Below the pieces are notes generated by a model. It did not search any database. It was not told the DNA's origin and saw only the letters and a program-made list of their open reading frames with translations. Source: a virus (taxonomy: Duplodnaviria; Caudoviricetes). Taken from it: DNA of 63,419 nucleotides. Below are positions 11,481 through 46,385 of this stretch, in pieces. The stretch is from positions 1-63,419 of the IMG/VR virus record IMGVR_UViG_3300043425_000902; one strand, given 5' to 3'. Made by a program: the position numbers and the translations under genes. The first letter of the stretch is position 1, and every line of letters begins with the position of its first letter.

Positions 11481-12915
11481 GGGCGTCCTTCAGCGCCTTG
11501 GGGCCCCGCTCCCAGATGACGCGGCGCAGGTTCTGCAAGTCCTCGCGCACGGGCTGTCCCGTGCGGGCGGCGTACTCGTAATCGGCCTCCATGGCCGTGC
11601 GGGCTTGGTTGCGGATCTCCGGTGTGTCAAGACGTTCGAGAGCGTTGGGTGCGCCGGACTCTTCGAGGTACTGAAGCATCTGTCGCGTGACGGCACCGGA
11701 TCCGTGAGGCTGCGCCCACTCGTTTTCGTAGCCTTTGTAGCCTGACGCAATACCGACAGCTCGCGGTTGGGCCCCGGGCAGGAGCGTCGAGTACGCGCTT
11801 TCAAGACCGTTCGCGAGGTAGTTTTCGGTTTCCGCCCCTGTCGGGGGTTCGGGGTAGAAGGAAGTCATGGTCACGCCCTGCCCGGTGTCCACCACGTCTC
11901 CAAGCCCGTACCGCTCACCGAGATTTGCGAGGCCTTCAATCTCGCGCTGAGTTTGCTTTTCTGGAAGCGGCGTAAACAGCGAACCGGACAGCTCGCGGGG
12001 AGCCTCGGGCAGCACTTTGTGGTACGCGCCAGCGGCTTGGCCAGACACGGCGGCGCGATACGCTTCCCCGGCTTCCAGCAGGGCTCTGTGCTCAGGCGCA
12101 ATGTCTTCGCCGCCCGGGGTCTCTTTCACGCGCGGCCTGCTTACGAACGCGGGGTTGTATTCGGTTCCTGCCTCGGTCTTGAACATGCCCTGCGCCTCAA
12201 GCATGGGAGCCTGCTCAAGACCCAAAGCGTTGTAGACGATGTCTCGGCTGTTGGGATCTCGAAAGAGGCGCCGGGGGTCAGACGAAAATGCGCCTCTTTC
12301 AAGTTGAAGCTGCGCTGCGTCCGCGGCTGACGTCGGCACTCGCACCAAGTTCGGCAGATGCCCGGTAACTTTGCCGGGGATGACCTCGTGCGTGGCAAAC
12401 GCTACGGCTCGTTCCGGCATTGTCGCCGAAGCGCGAAGGGCTGCGCGCTCTACCGCTTTGGTTCCGGCCTTGAGGGCGGGCTTGGCCGCAGCCGCTCCGG
12501 GCACGGGCAGCATCCCGAGAGCCAGTCCGCCGGTCGCGGCGGCGGCCATCTCGCTGTACTGGCGGTAAGCGGCCATGTCGCCGCGCGCCTTGGCCTCGAT
12601 GGCTTTCTGGCGCAGCTCCTTGGCATCCATCGCGCTCATCACGCCGCCGACGACAGGGAGGTTCTCAGCGACGGTGCGACCGGGGTTGGCCTTGAAGTCT
12701 TCCACCATTCCCATCGCCATGGGCGTGGCGACTTGGTTCTGCAGCACTTGCGGCAAACCCCCGCGCAGAAGGTCGGGCGCGACGCGCATGGCGAGGGCCG
12801 CCGAGTCGCGCAAGGCGTTACCGCTGGATGCGTAGTCGACGGCGCGTTTGCCGAGCGACTTGGCGCCCGCGACGATGGGGTCGTCGAGGATGATGGAGAG
12901 CGGGTTCTTAGGCAT
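11389..12915 (-). CDS. Putative virion-associated effector 3 (shared N-terminal module plus unknown cargo)
   Basis: Last gene of the late operon; N-terminal module paralogous to the two upstream genes. Confidence 0.75.
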   Translation of the reverse strand: MPKNPLSIILDDPIVAGAKSLGKRAVDYASSGNALRDSAALAMRVAPDLLRGGLPQVLQNQVATPMAMGMVEDFKANPGRTVAENLPVVGGVMSAMDAKELRQKAIEAKARGDMAAYRQYSEMAAAATGGLALGMLPVPGAAAAKPALKAGTKAVERAALRASATMPERAVAFATHEVIPGKVTGHLPNLVRVPTSAADAAQLQLERGAFSSDPRRLFRDPNSRDIVYNALGLEQAPMLEAQGMFKTEAGTEYNPAFVSRPRVKETPGGEDIAPEHRALLEAGEAYRAAVSGQAAGAYHKVLPEAPRELSGSLFTPLPEKQTQREIEGLANLGERYGLGDVVDTGQGVTMTSFYPEPPTGAETENYLANGLESAYSTLLPGAQPRAVGIASGYKGYENEWAQPHGSGAVTRQMLQYLEESGAPNALERLDTPEIRNQARTAMEADYEYAARTGQPVREDLQNLRRVIWERGPKALKDALSRKEFLPALTAALGLGAAVAGSAPYDSDE

Positions 12916-15064
12916 GGTCGGCCTCCACTAGGCCCCCTTTAGCGTACACTGGGCCACCAGACAGGATGTGTTGAAGCGCTTCGTCCGGGCTTATGCCGAG
13001 GATCCGCGAAGTCCTCTCCACCGCTTCGTTGATGATGGAGATCATGGGCTGCGGCTTGAAGTTGGGCGTCTTTGCCGTCTTGAGGCCTGCCCAAGTGACG
13101 TCTTGGAAGTTGGCGGGAGCGACGCCGTACTTCGCCGCGAGATCGTGCACGGGCTGCTCGTACAGTCCGTAGTACGTAGGCTGCGCCATCTTTCCGGTGG
13201 GGTCCCACGCGCCCATCATCTGCTCGTCGATGGTGGCTTTGTCGCGATGCCCGAGGAAGTTGCCCTTGAAGTTGAACCTTTTGGGGTTCCCGGCGGTGGT
13301 GAACAGCTCCGGGCTATCCATGAACTTTCGGCCCAGCACGATGTTGCCCATCGCGCCGTGCTTGCCGCCGCCGATCGGATACGGGATTTCGTAACCTTTC
13401 AGTGGTGTGGGCGTTCCGGTCAGGTCGAGGTGGTTCAGGTACCCGGTGGACAGGAAGTTTGTCGCCGGATCGGCGCCGCCGGTCGTTCCCGCCATGCTGT
13501 CGGCGAAGTACTTCTTGAACCGCCTCCGGCCTTCTTCGGGGCCGTACATCTGCATGTATGCCTGCTGCAGTTGCAGCATGGCATACCAGTGCTCTGCGTC
13601 CGGGTTGCCCTGCTGCGCCAGAAACCCCTCCTCCAAACGGCGAAGAGCTGCTGGATCTTGCGCCTTTTCGGTGTGAGCCAAAACAGTGGCTTCTTTTTTG
13701 GGGAGGGTGTCGATGAGCGTCGATCCGGCAAGCGGATAGTCTGCGGGGTCGACGTAGTCCCGCTTGGAGACGTCGAATATCGGCGTGTAGTTGCCCGCCT
13801 TGATGTCCGCAGTGGCCTGTTGCCGCGCCTTTGTCAGGGCTTGGATCTCGGGCGTGTCTGACCCCTTCCCTTCGTAAAAGCGCCCTTTGTTCTTGTCCCA
13901 CTTCTGCTCTGGCGGAGCCGGGTCTGGGTACCGCTCCCGCAGCTTTTCGCGGTCTAGGCCTGCGCTGGGCGCACGGCGCGCGGCGCCGCTTTCCGACCGG
14001 ATGATAGCTGGCGCCGACACCTGTTCGGTGGGCGCTTTGTACAGGTACTCCGCAAGGCGCTCCGGCGACATCGCGCCTTCAAGCCCTTCGCCTCCCGCGT
14101 AGTACCGGACCTCAGCGGGGATGGCGGGGATGCCTAGGGCCCGCGCGACGGCGGCGCGGTTGTTGCCCTCAAGGATAAAGGGCTCTCCCGTGTGGCTGAC
14201 GCCGATCATGATCGGGCCGCCCGCCTCCGCATCGTACCCCCGCTCGCTCATGGAGGGCAGAAGCCGGTCGTACTTCGGGTTGCCCGGTCCCGGGCTTTCG
14301 CGCATGGCCCCGGGAATGTCCTGCAGCTTTTGAGGATCCAAAAGCACGGGGCGGTCCAGATAGCCTGTCACCGCCCCCGCAGGGGCGTTGCGGGCAAAGT
14401 TGCCGCTTGCGCTGTTGTCGGCTGCACGCTCTGCCGCACGCTCGCGCTCGTACTTCAGCCAGTCCCCGCCGGGGTTGTCCCTCTGAACCTTGGGGGGTTC
14501 AAGGCCGTACTTCTCGGTCAGCTTCGAGACGTCGCGCACGACGTCGCGCTCTGCGGCGTTCTTGATCGCGCGCACGCCAGCCTTGCCGACGGCGCGACCG
14601 CCCGGGAGCACACCCGCCGCGATGGTTGCCGAGGAGATGGCGGCAAGCTCTTCCAGCCTGCGCGCCGCACTTTCGTCGCCGCGCTGCCGGGCCTCTTCAG
14701 CCTGATCGCGCAGGGCGCTCGTGTCGAGGGCGGAGAGAGCGCCGCCGACAAAAGGCACAAGCCCGGCCACAGTCTTGACGGGATGCTCCTTGAAGTCTTC
14801 CGCGAACCCTTCGGCGACAGCCTTTCCCCCGCGGACGACACTCCCGACCGGGTCCTTGGCAAGCCGGGACACGTCCTGATCCGCACGACCGCTGGCCACG
14901 TAGTTGCGGAACCGCGCGCCAGCGTCCTGCGCGCCCTGAAGGAGCGACAGGGGGTTGCTCAGCAGCCCTTCCAGCGGCTTGCGCTTCTTGCGGCGCTTGC
15001 CGGTGACGACGACCTCTTCAACCGTCGGGGCGTCGAGCGCGGCGGACATGGGGTTCTCAGGCAC
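12908..15064 (-). CDS. Putative virion-associated effector 2 (TonB-box-like motif, shared module, ParB/Srx-like domain, glycosylase-like domain, YAKGG tail)
   Basis: TVEEVVVTGKR; PIMI......ILEGNNR.......G...IP..V ParB-like core; WY...TIDEQM...QDVTW; likely GTG start at 15064 after GGAG. Confidence 0.75.
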   Translation of the reverse strand: MPENPMSAALDAPTVEEVVVTGKRRKKRKPLEGLLSNPLSLLQGAQDAGARFRNYVASGRADQDVSRLAKDPVGSVVRGGKAVAEGFAEDFKEHPVKTVAGLVPFVGGALSALDTSALRDQAEEARQRGDESAARRLEELAAISSATIAAGVLPGGRAVGKAGVRAIKNAAERDVVRDVSKLTEKYGLEPPKVQRDNPGGDWLKYERERAAERAADNSASGNFARNAPAGAVTGYLDRPVLLDPQKLQDIPGAMRESPGPGNPKYDRLLPSMSERGYDAEAGGPIMIGVSHTGEPFILEGNNRAAVARALGIPAIPAEVRYYAGGEGLEGAMSPERLAEYLYKAPTEQVSAPAIIRSESGAARRAPSAGLDREKLRERYPDPAPPEQKWDKNKGRFYEGKGSDTPEIQALTKARQQATADIKAGNYTPIFDVSKRDYVDPADYPLAGSTLIDTLPKKEATVLAHTEKAQDPAALRRLEEGFLAQQGNPDAEHWYAMLQLQQAYMQMYGPEEGRRRFKKYFADSMAGTTGGADPATNFLSTGYLNHLDLTGTPTPLKGYEIPYPIGGGKHGAMGNIVLGRKFMDSPELFTTAGNPKRFNFKGNFLGHRDKATIDEQMMGAWDPTGKMAQPTYYGLYEQPVHDLAAKYGVAPANFQDVTWAGLKTAKTPNFKPQPMISIINEAVERTSRILGISPDEALQHILSGGPVYAKGGLVEADHA

Positions 15065-17210
15065 GGTCAATCTCCGCTAGGCCGCCCTTGGCGTACGCTT
15101 TGAAGCCTTCGGTCAGGATGCGCTGCCGGGTCTCCGGGTCAAGGCCAAACCCGGGCACCTCGTCGAACTGCCGCTCGTCGTTGTATCGCTCAAACAGGGC
15201 ATCATGCTCGTCGGAGTCGACGATGTCTTCCCACGGCCTGCGGAAATAGTTCGCGATCTCGCTCCCCGACGCGCCGCCCGAGCCACCCGCATACAGGGAG
15301 AACATGTCCATCTCGGGCTGGACGCCGAAGGGCTTCAGCACTTCGTTGATGCGCTTCGGCACGATGCGGTCGTAGAACTCGCGCGAGCCCTTGCCGGGGC
15401 CGACGATGAGATCGGGCGTCTCAAGGACGCCCCAAGGCTCGCTGCGCGAACGCTCGACAAGCGCGCGGGTCAGCGGCTCGCCGATCCGCTTTTCGAGGAG
15501 GTCCGGCGTCCACAGGGCGAGCGCCCGCATCATGTGCTCCGACGACCATGGAAGCCTGTGCGTCGTACCCGCATAGTCGATGGGCGCTATAGAAAACAGC
15601 GGCTCTCCGGGGCGCCACGACTCGGGGCCGCCTAGCGCGCGGGCATTGCGGCTAATGAGTTCTCGGGCCCGCTCTTCATCGAGCGTGTCGAGGGCGCCAA
15701 GCCCTCGCCGAAGGCGGTCTGCGTCAATCGCATCGACGTCCACGGGAACGGTGCGGTAGTGCAGCTCTCGTATCGGGATGTCCTGATTGTACCGCCGAGC
15801 CTGCAGGGCGCCCGGCGTCCACGTGAAATAGTCGCTTTGGCGGCGCGCGGCCTCGGTCAGTGCGCGCTTCAGGCCTAGATCGACCCAGTCGTTCGTGCTT
15901 TCGACGTACGGACCCACCGGCGGCTCGTACGGGTCTCGCTCCTGTTTATTCGCGCGCAGCTGTTGCGCCCAGTCGCTTTGCAGCTCCTCAAGGTGCGTAG
16001 AGCTTCCCAGCGGGTCGTTGGACAGCGGGCGGCTTCGACGTCCCGTGTCGAGGTCATACGCCCACTCTCCGGCCTGTGTGCCGCGCGGGAAAACGTCCCG
16101 GTCAAGCACGCGGATGTGCGCGTACGTGTTGGGATCGTGCTCCCAGTGCGGCGCGCGGTACGCGACACGCGGCCATTTCAGCCTTTCAAGGCTAGGGCTG
16201 CTGTGCTGTCTTTGCGCGATCTCAACCGTCTGGGTTTGATACGGACTTGGCCCACGCAAAAGGATTTCCGAATAGTTCGTGGGGTTGCCGCCATCGAAGT
16301 CTTCCTCACTGAGAGGCTTCGGACCTGCGTCTCTTCCTACATTCAGTGCGAGCGGTTCGCCTCCCGCGGCGTCAAGGCGAGGATTACCCCACCTGTCTAG
16401 CGCGGACTTAGGATCGCGAGCGCTATAGGCGGTCTCATCCATGGCTGAAGGGATCCAAGCCTTGACGCCTAGCGTACGGGCTTTTGGCGGCTCCCGCTCG
16501 ACACCCAGAAGCTGCTCGTCGAAGTGCTTCGCGACCTCGTCCTTCGTCACGGAGGGGCGGTCGCCGAAGACCTCCCGGTACCCCGACCAGCGGATCTCTG
16601 CAGGCTTCACGCCGCTGCGCAGCAGCATCGCCTCTACCTGTTGGGGCGTGCCCTTCTCCTGCGGCAGGTTGCGGGCGACCTCCGCCGCGTGGCTGTAGAG
16701 GTTGAGCGGCGACAGCTTGCGCTCCGCGATGTTCTTGGCGAGGCCCTCGGCGCCCGTCTTGAGGCCGGGCTTGGCGCCGGGGACCATCCCCGCGAGCATC
16801 AGGGGCGTCATGGTCGCTGCGGCGGTCTCCAGCCGCCGTGCGGTCGCCGCGTCGCCGCGGTCTCGGGCCTCTTGAGCCTGCGCGCGGGTGTCCGCGATAT
16901 CCTTGGCGTCGCCGAACGGGGTCAGGCCCAGCAGGGCTTCCGCCGGGTCGCGCCTGAACTCGCGCCCGAAGCTCGACAGGGCGCCGGATGCGGCGCGATC
17001 GAGGGCGCCGACCGGGTCCCGCACGATGTCCTCGCCGAAGCGCATGAGGTCGCCGCTGGCGACGCTTTCGCCCAGCGCGTTGACCAGCGCTCCGGGGACG
17101 CCCTTGGCGCCCTCCAGAAGGGCGCGGGGGTTGCCGAACAGGGCCTTGAGGCGGTTCCGCTTCGGGCGCTTGCCGGTGACGACGACCTCGTCGACAGTGG
17201 TCTCGGTCAC
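15057..17210 (-). CDS. Putative virion-associated effector 1 (TonB-box-like motif, shared module, polyvalent-protein-like cargo, YAKGG tail)
   Basis: TVDEVVVTGKR; cargo motifs GVK.AE..WSG, H......AH.R..DR, EELQSDW that I recognise from large phage virion proteins. Confidence 0.75.
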   Translation of the reverse strand: MTETTVDEVVVTGKRPKRNRLKALFGNPRALLEGAKGVPGALVNALGESVASGDLMRFGEDIVRDPVGALDRAASGALSSFGREFRRDPAEALLGLTPFGDAKDIADTRAQAQEARDRGDAATARRLETAAATMTPLMLAGMVPGAKPGLKTGAEGLAKNIAERKLSPLNLYSHAAEVARNLPQEKGTPQQVEAMLLRSGVKPAEIRWSGYREVFGDRPSVTKDEVAKHFDEQLLGVEREPPKARTLGVKAWIPSAMDETAYSARDPKSALDRWGNPRLDAAGGEPLALNVGRDAGPKPLSEEDFDGGNPTNYSEILLRGPSPYQTQTVEIAQRQHSSPSLERLKWPRVAYRAPHWEHDPNTYAHIRVLDRDVFPRGTQAGEWAYDLDTGRRSRPLSNDPLGSSTHLEELQSDWAQQLRANKQERDPYEPPVGPYVESTNDWVDLGLKRALTEAARRQSDYFTWTPGALQARRYNQDIPIRELHYRTVPVDVDAIDADRLRRGLGALDTLDEERARELISRNARALGGPESWRPGEPLFSIAPIDYAGTTHRLPWSSEHMMRALALWTPDLLEKRIGEPLTRALVERSRSEPWGVLETPDLIVGPGKGSREFYDRIVPKRINEVLKPFGVQPEMDMFSLYAGGSGGASGSEIANYFRRPWEDIVDSDEHDALFERYNDERQFDEVPGFGLDPETRQRILTEGFKAYAKGGLAEIDRA

Positions 17211-23095: not shown

Positions 23096-25582
23096 TTAGG
23101 TTCGTCCTCCGCGCAGGTAGGCTTCGGGGGGTTTGGCGTTAGCGCTGAAAGCCCCCTTGGCGAGCTTCCTGCCCTTGTGCTTGCGGATGTTTACACGGAA
23201 CTGGTCGAGGCGGTCAGCCCCGGCTTTCGTCGAGCCGTCTCCGAGCAGGGCCACGGTCTCGGCGTCAATGACGTACTCCCCGTCGCTCAGGCGGGCCGGG
23301 ATCTTGTCGTCGCGCCCGGAACCCATGCCGCGCACGGCGAAGCCGCCGCGGGCGAAGTCCTCGGGGTTGGCGGACGGCGCGGGCATCGGCAGCGGGCGGG
23401 CGACCACGTCGCGGAACGGCGTGGGGTTGGTCGGCGCTTGGTTGTAGACGCCCGCCTCGTAAGGCGTCGGGCCGGTGAAGGTTGGGCCTGCGCCGGGCAG
23501 CGTAGACGCCGCAGGAACGCCGCTGACAGCGAACGGCGAGGTCGGGGCGGTGGGCGACTGGGGGGCGGTTCGCGCCAGCCGTTCGTTAACGGCGGCTTGC
23601 GCATCGGCCTCGGTCGCGTAGTCCCGCCAGAACACACCGTTCCCGGCTTCCCCGGTCTTGGCGTAGAACTTCCCGCCGTGAGACACGACCTTTGAAGGGT
23701 CAGCCTTGTCCAGCACCGCGCTGGTTTGCGCCCACGCATCGTTCTGCGCCTTGATCGCGGCGCGCGAGTTCGCAGACTGAACCGCGTAATCCGAGGCGTA
23801 CTTGTCGGCCTCTTCGCGGGTGTTGAACGTCGCCCCTGTGTCACCGATCATCACGGTGTATCCGCCGGGCCCACCACCGACGCGCGGCGTGAAATTGGGG
23901 ACCGGCGGGCTGTCGTTGGTCGGCTCAGGCCAGTAGCCGCCCGCCACCTGAACATCAGGCGTCGGGGTCACGTTGGCCGCAAAGCCGGTGGGCGACGGGA
24001 GGATACCCGACGGGCGCTGCGGCGTGCTGTTCAGGAACGCGACCTGCCCGCGCTGCCCGTAAGTGGCCCACTCCTCGGGCGTCATGCTGACGTTGCGCGC
24101 TGACATGTCGGCGAACGGCCCGGAAGGTGGCGGGAGCTTGGCGCGGAAGATGTCGGGCAAGCTGCCCGGGGTGCCCGCGTCGAGCACGCCAGCCGGAAGC
24201 GATGCGGGGCCTGAGCCTTGCGTCGCGGTCGTGACGCCGCCTGACACAAGCGACAGAAGTTTGAGCCAGTCGGCCCAGCTCATCCCGGCGGGCTTTTTGC
24301 TGTCGTCCAAACTGTCGTCGCCCGGATCGCTGCTGGTTTCCCCGTCGTCCGTGCCGCTGAACGTATCGGTCCCGGGCAGACTATCTTCACTGGGCTCGAC
24401 GACAACTTCCGAGACATCGGTCGCAGGGGTTGTGGTTACGGTGCTGAGGGCTCCGCCCGGCAGGCTGTCGTTACCACCGCCCTCGACGACGACTTCCGAG
24501 ACCGACGGCTCGGCGGTCTTGGGGGCGGCGGTCACGCTGGTGAGAGCCCCGACGCCAGCGCCGGTCAGTGGGTCCGTGCTGGCGGTAACGTCCACCCCCT
24601 CGATGGTGTTGCCGACTGTGTCAGCGCCCGTGCCGCCCCGCATGACGTTCTGGCCGCCCGCTCCGGTAACGGCGGAGCCCCCGACTGCACTAAGTGCGCC
24701 ACCAGTCACCGCGTCAACGCCGCCCTTGACGCCTTGGACAATGACCTCTCGGACGGTGTTTCCCGCGCCGGTAGCCGCTTTGCCGAGGGTGTCGGTGACG
24801 ACGTTCCCCGCCCCGTCGACGGCGCGCGTGACCGCGTTGAGAGGCTTCATCACGGCGGAGTAGCCGTTGTACATAGCCTGCCCTATGGGGCTCTCGCTGT
24901 TCGCCAGCACCTTGCCCAGCTTGCCGACGGCAGTGCCCCCGACGTAGGTCAGGCCCGCGCTCAGCGCGGCGCGCTTGACAGTCTCCTCGAAACTGCGCCC
25001 CTGAGCCACGGACGACAGCGCCGAGCCCGCGGCGGAGCCCACGGCAGCCCACGCCAGACCGATGCCCGGCGCAAGGATGGCGCCGATGATCGGCAGGGCG
25101 AAGTCGGCCACCTTGCCGAGCAGGCTTTGCTTCTTGGGGTCCCAGCGCTCCTCGGCCATGGACACCCAGCCGCCCTCGTCGGTCGGCTTCTGGATGGCCC
25201 ACGCCGCCGTGCGGCCTTGGTTCTGGGATATTGAGTTGGCGACGGCGGTGGCGGTTTGCGCCGCCTCGGGCCCCGCCCCCTCGAAGACGACATCACCCGT
25301 CATCTTGTCGACGAGACGGATCTTCTGCCCGGGGGCAACCATCACGGCGCCCGCGAAATCCCCGTCGTTGGTGTAGGCCGCGTAGTAGGGGGTGGCGTAG
25401 CCCTTGTTCGGATCGGCAGGCATGAGCTGCGCGTTGCGGAGCGGCGACTCCGGCTTCGGCGGGTCGCCGGGCGTCGCGCTCGCAGTCCCGTAGCGCCCGC
25501 GCTGAACGGCGCCGGGGCTCACGGCGAAATCGCCGCGCTCGCCCTGCAGGACTTCCGGGTTTACAGCAAAGCCTTCAGGCAT
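23096..25582 (-). CDS. Ejection protein with membrane segment, TonB-box-like repeats and FARGG...RLSDGEYV C-terminal domain
   Basis: Hydrophobic LPIIGAILAPGIGLAWAAVG; EVVVE-type repeats; FARGG..V.G.G.G..D.IPARLSDGEYV. Confidence 0.72.
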   Translation of the reverse strand: MPEGFAVNPEVLQGERGDFAVSPGAVQRGRYGTASATPGDPPKPESPLRNAQLMPADPNKGYATPYYAAYTNDGDFAGAVMVAPGQKIRLVDKMTGDVVFEGAGPEAAQTATAVANSISQNQGRTAAWAIQKPTDEGGWVSMAEERWDPKKQSLLGKVADFALPIIGAILAPGIGLAWAAVGSAAGSALSSVAQGRSFEETVKRAALSAGLTYVGGTAVGKLGKVLANSESPIGQAMYNGYSAVMKPLNAVTRAVDGAGNVVTDTLGKAATGAGNTVREVIVQGVKGGVDAVTGGALSAVGGSAVTGAGGQNVMRGGTGADTVGNTIEGVDVTASTDPLTGAGVGALTSVTAAPKTAEPSVSEVVVEGGGNDSLPGGALSTVTTTPATDVSEVVVEPSEDSLPGTDTFSGTDDGETSSDPGDDSLDDSKKPAGMSWADWLKLLSLVSGGVTTATQGSGPASLPAGVLDAGTPGSLPDIFRAKLPPPSGPFADMSARNVSMTPEEWATYGQRGQVAFLNSTPQRPSGILPSPTGFAANVTPTPDVQVAGGYWPEPTNDSPPVPNFTPRVGGGPGGYTVMIGDTGATFNTREEADKYASDYAVQSANSRAAIKAQNDAWAQTSAVLDKADPSKVVSHGGKFYAKTGEAGNGVFWRDYATEADAQAAVNERLARTAPQSPTAPTSPFAVSGVPAASTLPGAGPTFTGPTPYEAGVYNQAPTNPTPFRDVVARPLPMPAPSANPEDFARGGFAVRGMGSGRDDKIPARLSDGEYVIDAETVALLGDGSTKAGADRLDQFRVNIRKHKGRKLAKGAFSANAKPPEAYLRGGRT

Positions 25583-25812
25583 CAGTTCACCTCGAGCAAG
25601 GGATAGACGCGCTCGGCCCAGTCGCGCCAGTCCTCAAACTGATAAGGGTTGGGGATCGCCTGCTGTGTGAACGGTGATGCTCGCACGAAGCCGATGGCCC
25701 AGTCCTGCCAACGCGCTTCGTCCTCCAGCTTGCCGAAGGACCACGCATCACTCACGGAGAGGATAACACTATCCGCCCAGTCTGTCAGCGTCATGTTTCG
25801 AGGATTGATCAT
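25582..25812 (-). CDS. Small Trp-rich tail-associated protein
   Basis: MINPRNMTLTDWA...; overlaps both neighbours. Confidence 0.7.
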   Translation of the reverse strand: MINPRNMTLTDWADSVILSVSDAWSFGKLEDEARWQDWAIGFVRASPFTQQAIPNPYQFEDWRDWAERVYPLLEVN

Positions 25813-27350
25813 CCGATCATCGTCCCGTCGCCCGGCTGGAAGTGCCCAAGGATCAGGCCCATCTGGTAGTCGCCGCCCACCACGTTCGACGCGAAGCGGA
25901 ACCGCAGTTGGCGCCGCTGCGTCTTGAGGTAGACGACCTGATCCGTCTGGCCCGTCGCCGCCGCAGGGAACGGCATGAACGGCCCCTCGACTTCCGGCGA
26001 GCGGGCGTTGAACCGACCGTGCACCGACACCATCATCTCGCCGGACTGCACGAAGTCGGGCTCGATGTAGGCGATGTGCAGTTGCTTGTTGATCTTGCCC
26101 TCGCTGGAAATGGGCAGGGAGATTTCCGCCGTCTCGAAGAACGAGTAGATCGGCTGAGTGGACGTGCCATCCACCTCGTCGACGCCGGTCTCGTGGACCC
26201 ACAGCTTGTAGCCGCTGGTCGAGGACTGCACGCCGGTCAGCAGCGGCTTGCGGAACACCGAGGGCGACGTGCCGGCGGACCTGCCGCCGTTCGGCAACTC
26301 GCAGTCATACCACGAGTTCTCGCGCACGTTGTAGATGATGGCGTGGCTGCACTCCGTCGCCTCGCCGCGCGGGTAGCACCACCAGATTTCGCCGTAGCGC
26401 GGCACCTTGAAGGCGAAGACCTTCTGCGCGTGATTGACGTTCAGGCCGTCGAAGAACCAGTTGATGTTCATGGCGTTCGGCACTTCGCGCACCACGCCGT
26501 TGAACATGAGGAACCTGTCAACGCCCAGCCAGAAGAACACCCCGTCGTACTCGATGACGCTGTTGGGCGACAGGATCGAGGACTCGGTGCTCAGGGTGTC
26601 GAACTGGAAGACCTCCGCGCCGCCCACGAAGGTGGCCCGCACGACGGCGTCCAGCGACCACATCAGGCCCGACGGCGAGTTGCCCGGGCCGCCCCGGAGC
26701 GGCATGGCCTTGACGATCTTCTGCGCCGTGACGTTTGCGGATCCGCTACCGCTGCCGGTGAAGTCGGTCGGGTCGCCCGCCACGGACCAGGCCACATAGC
26801 CGTTTGTCCCATAGATGAAGGTGTAGGGGTGCAGCGCCACGACGCCGCCGGTGCAGTTGCCGCCGGACGGCAGGGTGATCGCCGTCAGGGCGCCGGTGCC
26901 GAGGATCGGGCCGGAGAACAACTCGCCGCCGTTGCTGTTGGCGATGTTCGTCCCGTTCGGCGCCACCTGCGCCACCAGCAGGTTCTGCGTGCTGTCGCTG
27001 TCGATGTCGAACTGCCAGACGTTGGCGGCGTCAGCCGTGAAGCCCGACGTCGGGGTGCGGTCGGTGATGACCGAGGTGTTGTTCGACGAGTCGATGAAGA
27101 ACCGCTCGATCTTGTTGGCCGAGCCGGAGTGCACGTAGGTCAGGTCGTTCTGCGTGTAGGCGTTCAGCGCCCGGCTGACCTCGGACAGGTACTTGTTGAT
27201 GGAGCGATAGCCGCCGATCTTCCGCGGCAGGCCGCGCTGGAAGCGGACCCACTGCCCGTCGACATAGGCGTCGCCCTCCAGCATGGTGCCGTCGCGCTTT
27301 ATGCCGGGCTGGGACTGGATGCGGATGATGCTGGTTGACGGCGGGGGCAT
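25809..27350 (-). CDS. Tail nozzle / packaged-DNA stabilisation protein (tail tubular B or P22 gp10-like)
   Basis: PGIKRDGT, WVRF..G.PRKIGG, EIWW.YP, YN..E..WY; beta-rich; position. Confidence 0.78.
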   Translation of the reverse strand: MPPPSTSIIRIQSQPGIKRDGTMLEGDAYVDGQWVRFQRGLPRKIGGYRSINKYLSEVSRALNAYTQNDLTYVHSGSANKIERFFIDSSNNTSVITDRTPTSGFTADAANVWQFDIDSDSTQNLLVAQVAPNGTNIANSNGGELFSGPILGTGALTAITLPSGGNCTGGVVALHPYTFIYGTNGYVAWSVAGDPTDFTGSGSGSANVTAQKIVKAMPLRGGPGNSPSGLMWSLDAVVRATFVGGAEVFQFDTLSTESSILSPNSVIEYDGVFFWLGVDRFLMFNGVVREVPNAMNINWFFDGLNVNHAQKVFAFKVPRYGEIWWCYPRGEATECSHAIIYNVRENSWYDCELPNGGRSAGTSPSVFRKPLLTGVQSSTSGYKLWVHETGVDEVDGTSTQPIYSFFETAEISLPISSEGKINKQLHIAYIEPDFVQSGEMMVSVHGRFNARSPEVEGPFMPFPAAATGQTDQVVYLKTQRRQLRFRFASNVVGGDYQMGLILGHFQPGDGTMIG

Positions 27351-27916
27351 CAGAGCGTGACCTCGGCCTCGATGGTGACGGTCGCGCTGTCCAGCACGGT
27401 GGTCGTGCCGACCTTGCGGATGTCCACGGTGAACGTGCAGGACTTGATGCCGAGGGTGCTGCGGGTCACGGTCCAGTCGCGGGTAGACGACAGCGCCACC
27501 CACGAGCCGCTGGTACCGCTGGACAGCGTGCCTGACGTCACGGTGACGTACGCCTCGTAGTTGGCCGCCGCGCCGGTGGGCGTCACCCAATCCTCGATGT
27601 AGTTGAACGTGCCGCTCGGGCTCTCGGTGTAGACCTTGCCGTTCGAGTTCAGCCGGTAGCCGTTCGTAGCGGAGCCGGGCGTCGGGGCCGACGAGTAGCT
27701 GCTCTGGTTCGTGATGCTGATCGTCGGGGCCGACGTGCCGTAGAAACTGCCGATGCTGATCGCTCCGCTGGACGGCACCGCGCCGTTGGTGCCCGACGTG
27801 CCCGCCGGGACATAAGTGCCGCCCGCATAGTAGTCGCCGAGGGACGGCGACGAGGGGCCGCCGAACTCGCCCTTGATGTCGTTCAGGCTCAGCGCACCGC
27901 TGGTCGGCAGCGTCAC
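27350..27916 (-). CDS. Tail fibre tip/accessory protein
   Basis: LP.SG.LSL.DI..EFGG....SL.DYY.GG N-terminus, commonly found downstream of chaperone-bearing fibres. Confidence 0.7.
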   Translation of the reverse strand: MTLPTSGALSLNDIKGEFGGPSSPSLGDYYAGGTYVPAGTSGTNGAVPSSGAISIGSFYGTSAPTISITNQSSYSSAPTPGSATNGYRLNSNGKVYTESPSGTFNYIEDWVTPTGAAANYEAYVTVTSGTLSSGTSGSWVALSSTRDWTVTRSTLGIKSCTFTVDIRKVGTTTVLDSATVTIEAEVTL

Positions 27917-30201
27917 CGCAGGTTCTCCAGGTCGATGATGCGGGCGTGCAGGTCGTCAATCTGGTCCTGCTGCACCTTGATGGCCTCGATGAGCAGGGGC
28001 ACCAGCCGCGAGTAGTCCAGCGTCAGGTAGCGGTCGTCGACAGGCGCCGGGGCCACGACCTCGGGCATGACGGCCTGCACGTCCTGCGCCGACACGCCGA
28101 CCTCGCGCTTGGACTTGTAGCCTAGGGCCTCGGCGGTGGCGTTGGCCCGATAGTAGAAGCCCTTGAGCGCCTTGACCTTGCCGATGGCGTCGTGGATCGG
28201 GCCGAGGCGCTGCTTCAGCCTGTCGTCGGAGAAGTAGGCGGTGATGTTGCCGGTCGCCGTGATCCCGCCGTTCACCGACAGGCCGGCCATCGTGTAGCTG
28301 TTGCTGCTGTTCAGCGCGTTGGCCGTGCTGGCGGTCGTCGCCGACGTCGCGCTGGTGGCCGACGTGGCCGTGGCCGCGTTGCCGCTGATGCTGATGGCCC
28401 ATGTGCCGCTGGCCCCGGAGCCCGAGGTGGAGGGCACGTCAAGCGCGGAGCGGGCGCCGGACGCGGTCGTCGCGCCCGTGCCGCCGTTGGCGAGAGCGAG
28501 CGTGCCGCCGAGGGTCAGGGTGCCACTGGTCGTGATGGGGCCGCCCGACAGGGTCATGCCGGTAGAGCCGCCAGACCCGCTGACGCTGGTCACGGTGCCT
28601 CCGCCCCCGCCGGTCGCCGCGATGGTGATGCCGCCGGCGCTGTTGGTGATGGTGACGTTGCTGCCCGCCGTCAGCGTGGCGAGCGAGTAGCCCGAGCCGT
28701 TGCCGATCAGCAGTTGGCCATTGGTCGGCGTGCCGGTGAGGCCCGTGCCGCCGTTCGCGGTGGCGAGGGTGCCGCCCAGCGTGATCGTGCCGCTGGTCGT
28801 GATGGGCGAGCCGCTGGCCGTCAGGCCGGTCGTGCCGCCGGACAGGGCGACGCTCGTCACGGTGCCGCCCCCGCCGCCCCCGCCGCCACCCGTGTTGGTG
28901 ATGGTTATGGAGCCGCTGGCGTTGGTGATCGAGATGCCCGAGCCCGCCGTGAGCGTGGCGGCGGTGTAGTTGGTCCCGTTGCCGATCAGCACTTGCCCGT
29001 TCGACGGGACGGTCGTGACGCCGGTGCCTCCGTAGGCGGGAGCCAGTGCGGTCGTCAGGCCGGACAGCGAGGTGATGTCGGAGTTGGCGCCCGACGCCGC
29101 CGCCGACAGGTTGACCCGCGCGCCGGAAGCCGTCGTGGAGCCCGTGCCGCCGTCCGCGATGCTGACCGGCGTGGAGATGCCGCCCGTGTCGGCGTCGACC
29201 ACGTTGGACCCGTCGCAGTAGAAGATGCCGCGGGAGTTGCGCACCACGTTGATGGCCGGCGTCTGCGCGGCGGTGCGCACGCCGAGGGTGTAGGAGCCGC
29301 CGGTCGTGGAGTTGTCGATCCAGTACTGCTGCGTCGTGGACGGGACCACGATCTCCATGTTGGCCGTCAGCGTGCCGGTGAACTTGTAGGCCACGCGGTT
29401 CAGTTCGCTGCCGCTCAGGGTGTAGGGCGAGGACTGGCCGGTCAGGCTGATTGACGTGTAGTCGAACGCGAAGGTGGCGCTGCGCCCGAGGCCGAAGGTG
29501 TACCAAGCCGACCCGTCCGTCACGACCCGGCAACTGTCGCCGGGCGACAGCACGAGCGTCGTGGCGCCGTTGATCAGTTCCGAGGAGGCCGGGTCGATGG
29601 TCAGGTTGCCCGTGCCGCCGTTGCGGATATCGGCGAACCAGTTGTTGCCCAGCGTGCTGGCGGCGATCAGCGACACGGTGCCGAGCGCGCCGGTCCAGAC
29701 GTAGGCCGCACCCCGCGCGCCGGCGGGCAGCGTGAAGTTGCTGTTGAAGGTCGTGACGGTCTCGGCGACGGACAGGGTCGAGCCCGTGGCGATCAGGCCG
29801 AAGCCGGCCAGCGACGAGGCTTGAGCCTGGGCGGTCGTGGCGCCAAGCTGGAACGTGCGCCAGGTTCCCGCCGCCGTGCTGTTGTCGACGAGGTAGACTT
29901 CCCACTGGGCTCCCGCCGCGATGGACAGGAGCGTGCCGCCGCTCGCGTCCTTGATGGTGATGGTCGAGGGGCCGAGGTTGTTGAACAGCACCGTCTGGCC
30001 GACGCCGGTCAGCGTGGCGTCGGGCATGGTGACCGCAAACGCGCCGGACGGCGACACGTCGATGATCGAGGCGGCGACCGGCGTCGTGGTGTTGGACTCC
30101 AGCGGCCATTCCAGCGCGGTGTCCGCCGTCAGCGCGAGGGCGAGATACGAGACGTCAGAGGGGTAGAGGTTCGAGCCTCCAAACACTTCGGTGTAGGACA
30201 C
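27913..30201 (-). CDS. Tail fibre with C-terminal intramolecular chaperone (peptidase S74)
   Basis: GGTG and VTSV repeats; YFSDDRLK, G.SAQ.V..V.PE.V, LDY..LVP.LIEAIK and terminal coiled coil. Confidence 0.9.
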   Translation of the reverse strand: MSYTEVFGGSNLYPSDVSYLALALTADTALEWPLESNTTTPVAASIIDVSPSGAFAVTMPDATLTGVGQTVLFNNLGPSTITIKDASGGTLLSIAAGAQWEVYLVDNSTAAGTWRTFQLGATTAQAQASSLAGFGLIATGSTLSVAETVTTFNSNFTLPAGARGAAYVWTGALGTVSLIAASTLGNNWFADIRNGGTGNLTIDPASSELINGATTLVLSPGDSCRVVTDGSAWYTFGLGRSATFAFDYTSISLTGQSSPYTLSGSELNRVAYKFTGTLTANMEIVVPSTTQQYWIDNSTTGGSYTLGVRTAAQTPAINVVRNSRGIFYCDGSNVVDADTGGISTPVSIADGGTGSTTASGARVNLSAAASGANSDITSLSGLTTALAPAYGGTGVTTVPSNGQVLIGNGTNYTAATLTAGSGISITNASGSITITNTGGGGGGGGGTVTSVALSGGTTGLTASGSPITTSGTITLGGTLATANGGTGLTGTPTNGQLLIGNGSGYSLATLTAGSNVTITNSAGGITIAATGGGGGTVTSVSGSGGSTGMTLSGGPITTSGTLTLGGTLALANGGTGATTASGARSALDVPSTSGSGASGTWAISISGNAATATSATSATSATTASTANALNSSNSYTMAGLSVNGGITATGNITAYFSDDRLKQRLGPIHDAIGKVKALKGFYYRANATAEALGYKSKREVGVSAQDVQAVMPEVVAPAPVDDRYLTLDYSRLVPLLIEAIKVQQDQIDDLHARIIDLENLR

Positions 30202-30855
30202 CTATGCCTCCTTGCGGGCGGAGTTGCGGTCGAGCACCTTGGCGAGGTCCTCGCCGTTGAGCATGGCGGCGGCGCGGTCGTACATGCCCTGCCACACTTG
30301 GATGCGCTCGTCGTTCTTGAGGAAGGGGGTCGCCTCCAGCAGCGTGCCGTACAGCAGCAGCTGGGGCGCGTACTCAGTCAGCCAATTGGTTTGCACCGTG
30401 TCGTCCAGCAGCGGCGGCAGCTCGTAGTAGAGGATCTCGAAGGGGTACGCGGCGTCGGGTGTCGGAGCGAAGACCCAGTGGCTGTAGTCGTAGTCCGCCG
30501 TGAAGACGGGTTCGCCGGTCTCGCCCTCGTCGGGCCAGTACTGCCGGACGTACTCGTAGGAGCGCGTGTAAACCTGCTTGCGGGTGCTGTTGCCGGTCCC
30601 CGTGCCGATGTTGATCGACACCGTGTCGCGCCAGCGGTCGGGCTTGGCGTAGACGGACTGGCCGGGCGTCAGGGCGCCCGTGACGACGTTGATGAAGCCT
30701 TGGACCTTCAGCTCCCGGGCGATGCGGCGCTCGGCAAGGTTGATGAGGCGGGGGAGCTGCTCGATGATGACGGGGTCGTTGCCGAGCGTGGACCCGCGCT
30801 CAAGGTACCGCTGCACGTCTTCTTTGAGCGTGGTGAAGGTCGTCGTCGTCGCCAT
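30202..30855 (-). CDS. Head-tail adaptor protein
   Basis: L...V..YL.R, I.LAE.RI.REL, PTPD..Y, NWL....P.LLLYG.L.EA..FLK. Confidence 0.8.
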   Translation of the reverse strand: MATTTTFTTLKEDVQRYLERGSTLGNDPVIIEQLPRLINLAERRIARELKVQGFINVVTGALTPGQSVYAKPDRWRDTVSINIGTGTGNSTRKQVYTRSYEYVRQYWPDEGETGEPVFTADYDYSHWVFAPTPDAAYPFEILYYELPPLLDDTVQTNWLTEYAPQLLLYGTLLEATPFLKNDERIQVWQGMYDRAAAMLNGEDLAKVLDRNSARKEA

Positions 30856-45470: not shown

Positions 45471-46385
45471 TCAGACGCCAGCGGTCCCGTAGATGCCGCG
45501 CGGATCGGTCCAGCCGAACGCATAACGCTCGGTGGCCTTGTACCGCATGGAGTCGGTCTCGAAGTCGCCTTCCATGGACTTCTCCAGCCCGCGGCGCTTG
45601 GCCAGCTTCAGGCCTTCGGGCGCATCGGTCTGGATCCACCAAGCGGTGGTCGAGGTGATACGCGCGAGGTTGGCCTGACCGCCCTTGAGCATGCCCATGG
45701 ACTTCACCGGGTTGATGTCGTTGTTGGCCGTGCCAGCGCGCAGGGCCGAGTTCAGGATGACCTCGGCTTGAAACACGTTGGAGGGGCCGGTCACGAGCTG
45801 AGTGCCGGTGAGCCGGATGCGCTTGCCGTTGCTGTCGACGGCGTTGCGGATCTGGATCAGGAGCTGCTCCACCGAGGTCTGGGACATCGCCGCAGCGGTG
45901 CTCAGGACGTTGGAGAAGGTGCCGTTGACGATCGGGTGGTTGTTGGCCACCAGCGCCACGCCGTCGCCGCCCTGATACGAACCGTTGAAGGAGCGGTTCA
46001 GGACGTTGGCGCCGAGGGTCTCCTTGGTCTCGACCAGCGACTGGGCGAGGTGCTTGGAGTAGGTCGAGCCGATGCGGATGTGGTCGCCGTCCTCGACAAG
46101 GACCTTGGTCAGGGCGAAGGCCAGACCGTAGACCTTGTAGATGTAGCGCTGCAGGAAGAGCACGCCGCCGGACTGGTAGGTGACGGGCATGCCGTCGGGC
46201 AGTTCGGGGGCGGCGCCCATGCCGTAGAGAACAGGCTCTTCGTGGTAGTTCCGCGGCGTGCCGCTGAACTCCTTGAAGACCTGCTTCCACTCGTCGGCGC
46301 GCTGGTCGTAGATGCCGTCGAACTCTTCGTTCATGATCGGCTCGACGATGGACCGGAAGTCGGTTGACCTCATGGGGTTAGCCAT
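45471..46385 (-). CDS. Major capsid protein
   Basis: 304 aa; GDG..L....HP, EGDFET...RYK..ERY.FGW.DPRG.YG..G; position after scaffold. Confidence 0.9.
   Translation of the reverse strand: MANPMRSTDFRSIVEPIMNEEFDGIYDQRADEWKQVFKEFSGTPRNYHEEPVLYGMGAAPELPDGMPVTYQSGGVLFLQRYIYKVYGLAFALTKVLVEDGDHIRIGSTYSKHLAQSLVETKETLGANVLNRSFNGSYQGGDGVALVANNHPIVNGTFSNVLSTAAAMSQTSVEQLLIQIRNAVDSNGKRIRLTGTQLVTGPSNVFQAEVILNSALRAGTANNDINPVKSMGMLKGGQANLARITSTTAWWIQTDAPEGLKLAKRRGLEKSMEGDFETDSMRYKATERYAFGWTDPRGIYGTAGV

Follow-up and report, generated by a model that had tools for sequence, protein, structure and literature searches.

TonB-box-like motifs in the predicted disordered linker of a phage ejection protein

Introduction

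TonB-dependent outer-membrane transporters such as BtuB, FhuA and FepA dock onto the energy-transducing protein TonB through a short N-terminal motif, the TonB box, that lies in an extended, unstructured stretch ahead of the plug domain. Group B colicins, S-type pyocins and pesticin, which must also cross the envelope, carry TonB boxes in unstructured translocation domains, so TonB-box mimicry is well established for bacteriocins. For phages, TonB dependence has been placed at the level of the receptor: infection by T1 and phi80 needs TonB and proton-motive force, and the dependence is assigned to irreversible adsorption to FhuA and its TonB coupling, with no TonB box in a phage protein described in that account (PMC11658791). 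Short-tailed phages such as T7 (gp14/15/16), P22 (gp7/16/20), N4 and phiKMV-like phages eject internal virion proteins that are presumed to build a trans-envelope conduit. How these proteins and the first part of the genome cross the periplasm, and what powers that step, remains an open question. None of the titles and abstracts on these ejectosomes that we surveyed mentions TonB boxes, and no paper held both ‘TonB box’ and ‘ejection protein’. More broadly, full-text searches found no paper linking TonB boxes to ejection, virion or tape-measure proteins of the phage itself, although most subscription journals lay outside these searches and an earlier report cannot be excluded.

Here we analyse a 63,419-nucleotide stretch (the window; IMG/VR record IMGVR_UViG_3300043425_000902, Caudoviricetes), a complete 63-kb phage related to the Caulobacter Riverwalk phages. 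A sequence-only reading had proposed that four TonB-box-like strings in a low-complexity linker of the first ejection protein alternate with GALS[AT]V and D[ST]LPG repeats, and that they could be serial handles for ratchet-like pulling by TonB as the trans-envelope channel forms, an idea said to be supported by the presence of such motifs in a third, non-paralogous protein.

Results

A tape-measure-like protein at the head of the ejection module

The motifs are encoded by the ORF at 23096-25582 (minus strand, 828 aa; P0001), the first gene of the ejection (internal virion) module, which follows directly after the tail genes in the late structural operon. The gene order matches that of Caulobacter phage GB2A: SU10-type adaptor, fibre, structural protein, small ORF, this protein (annotated there as ‘tape measure’), two hypotheticals and ‘lytic tail protein’. 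The next gene matches PHROG 4287 ‘DNA ejection protein’ (E 4.4e-7) and is followed by two more large proteins, an order likewise shared with GB2A, and 4297 library proteins match P0001 at E<=0.001. Pfam gave no family at E<=0.01, apart from sub-threshold noise, for P0001, its three downstream neighbours, or the two further late proteins discussed below, and no Plug, barrel or bacteriocin domain was detected in P0001.

The AlphaFold2 model, built with a 70-sequence alignment, has a folded N-terminal alpha/beta domain (aa 50-145, 25148-25435, minus strand like all features given here; pLDDT about 94-97), followed by a hydrophobic, membrane-segment-like stretch (aa 152-186, 25025-25129) with predicted helices at 154-169 and 181-193. 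This is the only strongly hydrophobic part of the protein (19-residue Kyte-Doolittle windows starting at aa 152-168, maximum 1.96, the only windows at or above 1.4). The acidic linker that holds the motifs (aa 256-425, 24308-24817) is 52% Gly/Ser/Thr/Ala over 170 aa, with 24 Asp+Glu against 5 Lys+Arg, and is predicted to be disordered: pLDDT is below 50 almost throughout (block means 30-42), with no DSSP helix or strand anywhere in 257-426. A short second hydrophobic helix (aa 436-447, 24242-24277) closes the linker in a segment (W..ANP..AA.LGL.L.GG) conserved in close homologues, and a second folded alpha/beta domain follows (aa 565-680, 23543-23890; pLDDT about 85-96).

The C-terminal module (aa 740-828, 23099-23365; GGFAV.G.G.GR.D.IPA.LSDGEYVIDAETV...) has nearly invariant columns in the 70-sequence alignment and is shared with tape measure proteins, carrying the conserved GG[FY]..G.GTGRSD....ARLS.GE[FY]V motif module. 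PHROG 6090 and 5448 are hit over aa 742-800, and a profile of the alignment hits PDB 8zdo chain S, ‘Tape measure protein (gp16)’, at E 5.4e-5, a protein in which the motif occurs twice. However, the model has no long coiled coil of the kind expected for a tail ruler, and no tube or sheath family was matched among the ORFs scanned, which were not all those of the window. A fold search found no PDB match at E<=0.001, and the viral structure library returned only uncharacterised homologues. The protein resembles the T7, P22, N4 and phiKMV-like ejection proteins in its gene block after the tail genes, hydrophobic segments, large disordered parts (predicted here) and presumed conduit role, but there is no detectable sequence or fold similarity to them.

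Four motifs in the linker

The observation made from sequence alone holds: all four strings are present, in the linker after the hydrophobic segment, and they lie on the minus strand, which had not been stated. Slot 1, TVREVIVQG, is at aa 276-284 (24731-24757); slot 2, TIEGVDVTA, at aa 326-334 (24581-24607); slot 3, SVSEVVVEG, at aa 360-368 (24479-24505), followed by GGNDSLPGGALSTV; and slot 4, DVSEVVVEP, at aa 389-397 (24392-24418), followed by SEDSLPG. Flanking repeats are GALSAV (295-300), GALSTV (377-382) and a third copy, GALTSV (345-350), which does not fit GALS[AT]V as it had been written. DSLPG occurs twice (372-376 and 400-404), and the second copy (24371-24385) lies just outside the start of the interval that had been delimited. 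Directly upstream of slot 2 are two RTX-like nonapeptides (GAGGQNVMR and GGTGADTVG; aa 307-324, 24611-24664), a hint only.

The pattern [VIL]x[DE][VILM][VIT][VI] occurs 3 times in the linker against a mean of 0.045 in shuffles, with 0 of 20000 shuffles reaching 3, and a looser pattern covering all four copies gives 4 against 0.031, again 0 of 20000, although both patterns were chosen after seeing the data. Slots 3 and 4 derive from an old duplication, a 28-nt repeat that is 86% identical with its arms 87 nt apart, whereas Tandem Repeats Finder reported nothing in 24200-24900.

In 12 close homologues, slots 1 and 2 are conserved in position. Slot 1 appears as xxGELI[VI]T or xxKELVVQG (majority identity 0.67 against 0.49 for the rest of the linker) and slot 2 is the most conserved (0.75, with full occupancy), in orthologues that are 50-60% identical overall. 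Close orthologues vary the number of slot 3/4 units from one to three: the unit occurs three times in the homologue P0003 and once in most other close homologues.

Likeness to transporter TonB boxes is weak in this protein and strong in its family

We built a scoring matrix from 47 TonB-box sites found upstream of Plug domains in six bacterial genomes (leave-one-out median 17.2 bits, 25th percentile 8.5 bits). On this matrix the four copies score 6.9 (slot 2, the best in the protein), 3.9 (slot 1), 1.6 (slot 3) and 0.1 (slot 4) bits, ranking 1, 2, 4 and 7 of the protein's 818 positions, all below the 25th percentile of real boxes. Their sum of 12.5 bits is reached by 499 of 5000 shuffled linkers, and the reversed linker scores 15.0, so their likeness to TonB boxes is not above chance on its own. 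The copies carry Q, T, E and E at the Thr position, and the basic residue is absent in three of the four.

The family evidence is much stronger. In 226 homologues of at least 450 aa the matrix finds 208, 97 and 20 sites at thresholds of 8.5, 12 and 17 bits, against 19.65, 2.8 and 0.05 in shuffled sequences, 25, 3 and 0 in reversed sequences, and means of 21.1, 3.5 and 0.08 (maxima 56, 14 and 2) for sixty column-permuted matrices. At least one site at or above 8.5 bits occurs in 132 of the 226 proteins, against 19 expected, while 94 have none; copy number varies from one to five, falling to one in many homologues, and 181 of the 208 sites lie at 40-70% of protein length. The family consensus is x-[DESG]-E-[IVL]-V-V-T-[GA]-x-[KR].

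This result was reproduced on an independent set of 64 unique family ORFs from 80 IMG/VR loci, which give 75, 37 and 7 sites forward against 1, 1 and 0 reversed, although 24 of the 64 have no site at or above 8.5 bits. Other same-strand frames of the same loci give 65, 15 and 2 sites in 359,173 residues, a density roughly 8 to 26 times lower. Most of the 15 non-family hits at or above 12 bits lie in large proteins just downstream in the same module, including N-terminal ones in L145, L147 and L173.

In the window, the two best hits among 67,957 residues of six-frame ORFs are N-terminal matches in two other late proteins. VEEVVVTGKRR (aa 17-27, 14990-15022) in the 720-aa product of ORF 12908-15070 (P0237) scores 26.3 bits, above the median of real transporter boxes, and VDEVVVTGKRP (aa 6-16, 17163-17195) in the 717-aa product of ORF 15057-17210 (P0236) scores 16.9 bits. 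These two proteins are paralogous to each other only in their first ~170 aa and are not significantly similar to P0001. A search for homologues of the N-terminal module of P0237 returned a single hit, P0239 at 97% identity, and none in viral contigs.

Hosts

The only cultured relatives infect Caulobacter vibrioides (PMC11053796), and the control genome of that species has TonB_C and Plug matches. Host inference from MAG binning was judged unreliable. The identical contig sits in a ‘Pseudomonadota’ MAG whose transporter boxes are of a Q-R-V-E-I-T-G type unlike the phage motifs, and relatives sit in MAGs labelled Aestuariivirga and Acidobacteriaceae. The MAG that holds the closest non-identical relative showed no TonB_C, Plug or TolB_N match, though it may be incomplete or a mis-binned phage contig. 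Among 61 sampled alphaproteobacterial genomes, 39 have TonB_C and 57 have TolB_N.

Discussion

The motifs suggest, but do not prove, that these phages borrow the host's TonB motor during infection. The strings are real short linear motifs, beta-strand-prone and set in a linker, predicted to be intrinsically disordered, of a tape-measure-like protein that is probably ejected with the DNA of a roughly 60-kb short-tailed phage. Given the order-specific match of the family consensus to the TonB box of TonB-dependent transporters, the most likely function is TonB-box mimicry, as in group B colicins and S-type pyocins, to which we assign a probability of about 0.45. In this view, the protein would leave the virion unfolded and reach the periplasm, where its linker would offer one to five boxes to the C-terminal domain of host TonB, binding by beta-strand addition and coupling the protein to the proton-motive-force-driven ExbB-ExbD motor. 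The two co-encoded cargo-like proteins would be coupled in the same way through their N-terminal boxes. Such coupling could extract, stretch or anchor these proteins while the trans-envelope conduit is built. Our analysis establishes the motifs, their conservation, their variable copy number, the predicted disorder and, at family level, the order-specific likeness to transporter boxes, whereas the presence of the protein in the virion (assumed from synteny; no proteomics data were found in the sections consulted of the paper on the cultured relatives), exposure of the linker in the periplasm, binding to TonB and any pulling are inferences. The copies in this particular protein are degenerate and may be weak or drifting versions of the family motif.

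The earlier interpretation is partly supported. The two outcomes named in advance as counting against it, folding of the repeats into an ordinary beta-structure and lack of conservation, were not seen: the linker is predicted to be disordered and the motifs are conserved in kind, with repeat number varying between homologues. The strong boxes of P0236 and P0237 also fit the proposal. However, the four copies themselves are statistically unremarkable as TonB boxes, and ratchet-like pulling as the channel forms is pure inference. Other observations sit uneasily with TonB mimicry. These include the 94 of 226 homologues and 24 of 64 viral ORFs that have no site at or above 8.5 bits, the lack of a TonB_C or Plug match in the MAG of the closest non-identical relative, and the presence of TonB_C in only 39 of the 61 sampled alphaproteobacterial genomes. 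The repeating unit is longer than a TonB box, with a D-[ST]-L-[PT]-G-G-A-L-[ST] tail that recurs after each strand and that TonB binding does not explain, and the shuffle and reversal controls do not exclude a common beta-strand-plus-turn motif that resembles a TonB box by convergence.

The differences from the described systems are clear in each case. Compared with the transporter box, the residue order is the same (acidic or polar residue, I/V, V, V, T, G/A, x, K/R) and 20 family sites reach the transporters' median score range, but the motif lies in the middle of a phage protein rather than at the N-terminus of a plug domain, and in one to five copies. Compared with the bacteriocins, a parasitic protein that must cross the envelope likewise carries the motif in a Gly/Ser-rich, predicted disordered region, and P0236 and P0237 carry theirs at the extreme N-terminus as bacteriocins do, but here the carrier is a putative virion ejection protein delivered through a tail, not a free toxin threading through a receptor, and the box is repeated in series.

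A bolder extension, which remains tentative and is rated slightly below the main reading, is that a widespread group of roughly 60-kb short-tailed phages equips its first ejection protein, and in some members further ejected cargo proteins, with genuine TonB boxes. Host TonB-ExbB-ExbD would then use the proton-motive force to pull these unfolded proteins out of the virion into the periplasm, or to tension the conduit, a phage counterpart of colicin import and a direct energy source for protein ejection and DNA delivery. Should ejection proteins carry working boxes, a defined host motor would be linked to protein ejection, tonB and exbBD would be predicted as resistance loci acting after adsorption, variable copy number would be explained as more handles, and there would be a simple sequence marker for finding such proteins in metagenomes.

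Alternatively, although this seems unlikely, the motif may serve phage-internal assembly or packaging, with the short strands binding the portal, the inner core, a scaffold or other ejection proteins of the assembled conduit by beta-strand addition. Three unrelated virion-internal proteins would then share the motif because they share that partner, and the likeness to TonB boxes would be convergent. The occurrence of the motif in several different proteins of the same late module, the conserved tail beyond the box and the poor scores of the copies in this protein are consistent with this, and a monomer AlphaFold2 model cannot see order that arises only in a complex. However, a phage-internal partner gives no reason for an order-specific match to the transporter consensus that includes the T-[GA]-x-[KR] half (97 sites at or above 12 bits, against about 3 in three different controls), and the window has no TonB_C-like domain in six frames that could act as an internal receptor.

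Less likely still, the linker may be a repeat that folds only on leaving the virion, with units of about 29-50 aa (strand plus Gly-rich turn) forming a calcium-bound beta-roll or an oligomeric beta-barrel or tube in the periplasm or membrane, so that folding itself acts as the ratchet or forms the pore without TonB. The RTX-like nonapeptides, the recurring Gly-rich tails and the position of the linker between two hydrophobic segments hint at this. The equivalent stretch of two homologues, P0003 and P0007, gives Pfam HemolysinCabind (PF00353) hits of 15.3 and 16.3 bits, but these are below the cut-off of 23, the other 8 of 10 homologues scanned have none, and P0001 has no hit at E<=0.01. AlphaFold2 gives no strands anywhere in the linker, the strands are only 6-7 residues long, and the fall in copy number to one in many homologues suits a docking motif better than a repeat fold.

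It is also improbable that the motifs lack a specific function, as by-products of a Val/Thr/Gly-rich low-complexity linker plus one old duplication. The chance-level matrix score, the higher score of the reversed linker and the origin of two copies by duplication would allow this, but the pattern count far above shuffles, the conservation of slots 1 and 2 beyond the surrounding linker, and the replicated family-wide enrichment speak against it. Docking onto another periplasmic strand acceptor, such as TolA (as for TolB and some colicins) or an envelope-biogenesis protein, is very unlikely: the C-terminal domain of TolA is homologous to that of TonB and also binds its partner by strand addition (see also the review PMC7391070), and TolB_N is more widespread than TonB_C in the sampled alphaproteobacteria, yet a TolA-box matrix from 29 alphaproteobacterial TolB N-termini (consensus L-x-I-D-I-T-x-G) finds 5, 1 and 0 sites forward against 9, 3 and 0 reversed in the same 226 proteins, and none of the four motifs scores above 1.7 bits on it.

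Finally, we considered and rejected prohead-protease cleavage sites of the [LIV]-x-E type. In the matrix hits the position two residues before the Glu is often Pro, Gly, Asp or Thr, and the conserved part lies after the Glu. No protease gene was identified among the ORFs scanned, which did not include every ORF, and the 304-aa ORF that hits ‘major head and protease’ families matches their capsid part.

Genomic context

The complete 63,419-bp virus record has a G+C content of about 67%, and its late genes lie on the minus strand. From high to low coordinates, these encode a protein of the SU10 adaptor family (30202-30855; Pfam PF24175, E 1.2e-30), a tail fibre with an endosialidase-chaperone end (27913-30201), a virion structural protein (25809-27959), a small ORF, the motif-bearing ORF (23096-25582, 828 aa, hereafter P0001), a 345-aa protein that matches the PHROG ‘DNA ejection protein’, and proteins of 483, 1130, 717, 720 and 508 aa. 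Portal, large terminase and a capsid-like protein lie further upstream. The same order from adaptor to ‘lytic tail protein’ occurs in Caulobacter phage GB2A (Riverwalk cluster), where the counterpart of P0001 is annotated as a tape measure protein. A 304-aa ORF at 45471-46385 (minus strand) matches the capsid part of ‘major head and protease’ PHROGs. The major capsid gene of the Riverwalk relatives was stated not to have been identified (PMC11053796); the counterpart of this ORF may be that gene.

The phage genome itself (a 100% identical, 63,398-bp contig, JBDKFA010000315.1) and two relatives are binned into bacterial metagenome-assembled genomes (MAGs) labelled Pseudomonadota, Aestuariivirga and Acidobacteriaceae. 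These are probably phage contigs swept into bins. We took the three different labels as binning noise and treated the host as unknown. The Aestuariivirga MAG showed no TonB_C, Plug or TolB_N match.

Serial motifs in the linker of P0001

The four strings noted in the sequence-only reading are all present in P0001, at aa 276-284, 326-334, 360-368 and 389-397, so that observation is confirmed. They follow the only strongly hydrophobic segment of the protein (aa 152-186), and lie in an acidic linker that is 52% Gly/Ser/Thr/Ala. As described in that reading, they alternate with two further kinds of repeat, here three GAL(S/T)(A/S/T)V strings and two DSLPG strings, although one of each departs slightly from the original description. 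A simple pattern covering three of the motifs occurs 3 times, against 0.045 in shuffled sequences, and 0 of 20000 shuffles reach that count. The last two units are an old duplication (28 nt, 86% identical, 87 nt apart).

AlphaFold2, run with a 70-sequence alignment, predicts a confident N-terminal domain (aa 50-145), helices through the hydrophobic region (154-256), no secondary structure and pLDDT below 50 over nearly all of 256-425, a short hydrophobic helix (436-447), a second folded domain (565-680) and a helical C-terminus. That the repeats might fold into an ordinary beta-structure had been named in advance as an outcome that would refute the TonB reading, and this is not seen in the monomer model. 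The C-terminal 90 residues are the most conserved part of the protein. They match tape-measure PHROGs and the tape measure protein gp16 of PDB 8zdo (E 5.4e-5), whereas no solved fold matches the rest. The highly conserved module (aa 740-828; 23099-23365, minus strand; GGF..G.G.GR.D.IPA.LSDGEYV) is shared with tape measure proteins of long-tailed phages. These include Corynebacterium and cyanobacterial phages as well as 8zdo gp16, in which the module occurs twice.

Comparison with transporter TonB boxes

To evaluate the likeness to TonB boxes, we derived a scoring matrix directly from transporter sequences. Plug domains were located in six bacterial genomes, one a MAG that holds the phage contig and five alphaproteobacterial genomes rich in transporters, and the 40 residues upstream of each Plug match were cut out. 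A one-site-per-sequence expectation-maximisation search found an 11-residue motif in 47 of these. One duplicate locus was dropped, and a few of the 47 sites look wrong but were retained. The motif is the familiar x-[EQD]-[ETR]-[VI]-x-[VI]-T-[GA]-x-[RK], and leave-one-out scores have a median of 17.2 bits and a 25th percentile of 8.5 bits.

Within P0001, the four motifs rank 1, 2, 4 and 7 among 818 positions, but score only 6.9, 3.9, 1.6 and 0.1 bits. Their sum is reached by 499 of 5000 shuffled linkers, and the reversed linker scores higher. The motifs keep the V-x-E-V-V-V half of the consensus but mostly lack the T-[GA]-x-[KR] half, although real transporters in our set include similar variants such as VSVEG, ISVQG and ILVQG. 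On this protein alone, the TonB-box reading would not stand.

P0001 has 4297 relatives at E<=0.001 among 50%-identity representatives, and 2094 at E<=1e-10, most of which share only the C-terminal module. We scanned the 226 proteins of at least 450 aa that were returned by the homologue searches. The transporter matrix finds 208, 97 and 20 non-overlapping sites at thresholds of 8.5, 12 and 17 bits, respectively, whereas shuffled sequences give 19.65, 2.8 and 0.05, and reversed sequences give 25, 3 and 0. Sixty column-permuted matrices give means of 21.1, 3.5 and 0.08, with maxima of 56, 14 and 2. At least one site occurs in 132 of the 226 proteins (19 expected), and 94 have none. Of the 208 sites, 181 lie at 40-70% of protein length, which is the linker. 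Typical sites read IEEIVVTGSPK, TDEIVVTGQRP, DDTIVVSANRL and VDELVVTGAKK.

The result was replicated using 80 IMG/VR loci, of which 75 had a frame with the C-terminal signature and 64 were unique (five loci without the signature and 11 duplicates were dropped). This set gave 75, 37 and 7 sites forward against 1, 1 and 0 reversed, and 40 of the 64 ORFs had at least one site. The other same-strand frames of the same loci gave 65, 15 and 2 sites in 359,173 residues.

In 12 close homologues (about 50-80% identical to P0001), the first two motif slots are held in place, with majority identities of 0.67 and 0.75, respectively, against 0.49 for the rest of the linker. The unit corresponding to the third and fourth slots is present once in most of these, twice in P0001 and three times in one homologue (P0003). 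Across the family, sites per protein range from 0 to 4 at 8.5 bits, with up to 5 in one viral ORF. The GB2A protein has VDEIVVTPS (9.8 bits) and VDELVIKPP between proline-rich spacers.

Interpretation and alternatives

The proposal in the sequence-only reading that the repeats relate to TonB is thus supported in part. The analysis shows that the motifs belong to a family-wide, order-specific TonB-box-like signal in the predicted disordered linker of a putative ejection protein, but the copies in P0001 are degenerate, and binding to TonB is unproven and inferred from sequence alone. We tentatively favor TonB-box mimicry (probability about 0.45). Full-text literature searches found no paper that describes TonB boxes in phage ejection, virion or tape-measure proteins, and the only joint hits concern the TonB box of FhuA in phage T5 work. 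A 2024 review of TonB-dependent transport places the TonB dependence of phages T1 and phi80 at the receptor (PMC11658791). The paper on the Riverwalk phages does not mention TonB and gives no receptor (PMC11053796).

A phage-internal docking motif seems less likely, yet a phage-internal partner cannot be excluded, and the conserved Gly-rich tail after each strand is not explained by TonB binding. The window has no TonB-like domain of its own. A conditional repeat fold appears more doubtful still, although a fold that forms only in an oligomer likewise cannot be excluded. Two RTX-like nonapeptides (G-x-x-G-x-[ND]-x-hydrophobic-x; aa 307-324 of P0001; 24611-24664, minus strand) lie directly upstream of the second motif slot, but the Pfam HemolysinCabind hits at the same place are sub-threshold and were seen in 2 of 10 homologues (P0003 and P0007). 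Mimicry of the TolA box receives no support, as a matrix from 29 alphaproteobacterial TolB N-termini (L-x-I-D-I-T-x-G) shows no enrichment, even though TolB_N occurs in 57 and TonB_C in 39 of the 61 genomes sampled (both tallies include one unpublished genome, from which no sequence was used and on which no conclusion rests).

TonB-box-like sites in other late proteins

In related viral contigs, TonB-box-like sites of 12-20 bits also occur in other large proteins just downstream of the family ORF, which account for most of the 15 non-family hits at or above 12 bits in the IMG/VR loci. The sites are at aa 883 of proteins of about 1130-1200 aa in loci L134, L137 and L190, at aa 900 of a 1011-aa protein in L191 and L192, and near the N-terminus of proteins of about 730 aa in L145, L147 and L173. 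The motif is therefore a feature of the whole ejection module and not of one protein.

In all six frames of the window (67,957 residues), the two best matrix hits are the N-termini of two adjacent late proteins of about 720 aa, P0237 (12908-15070, minus strand; VEEVVVTGKRR, 26.3 bits) and P0236 (15057-17210, minus strand; VDEVVVTGKRP, 16.9 bits). P0001 is not significantly similar to them. The best match is a weak similarity between aa 236-320 of P0001, in its post-membrane part, and aa 52-135 of P0237, in the N-terminal module that P0237 shares with P0236 (37% identity over 87 aa, E 0.015 for a single comparison). It includes a GGALSA string in both and may be chance. The description of P0001 in the sequence-only reading as a third, non-paralogous protein with such motifs is thus correct.

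P0236 and P0237 share about 170 N-terminal residues (40% identity, E 3e-23), beginning with the strong TonB-box match followed by a polybasic run (KRPKRNR and KRRKKRK, respectively), and a short C-terminal tail (YAKGGL.E.D.A), while their middles are unrelated. A third, metagenomic variant (P0239) has the same ends around a middle that carries a precomputed PF18760 hit. This looks like a polymorphic, possibly injected, cargo family.
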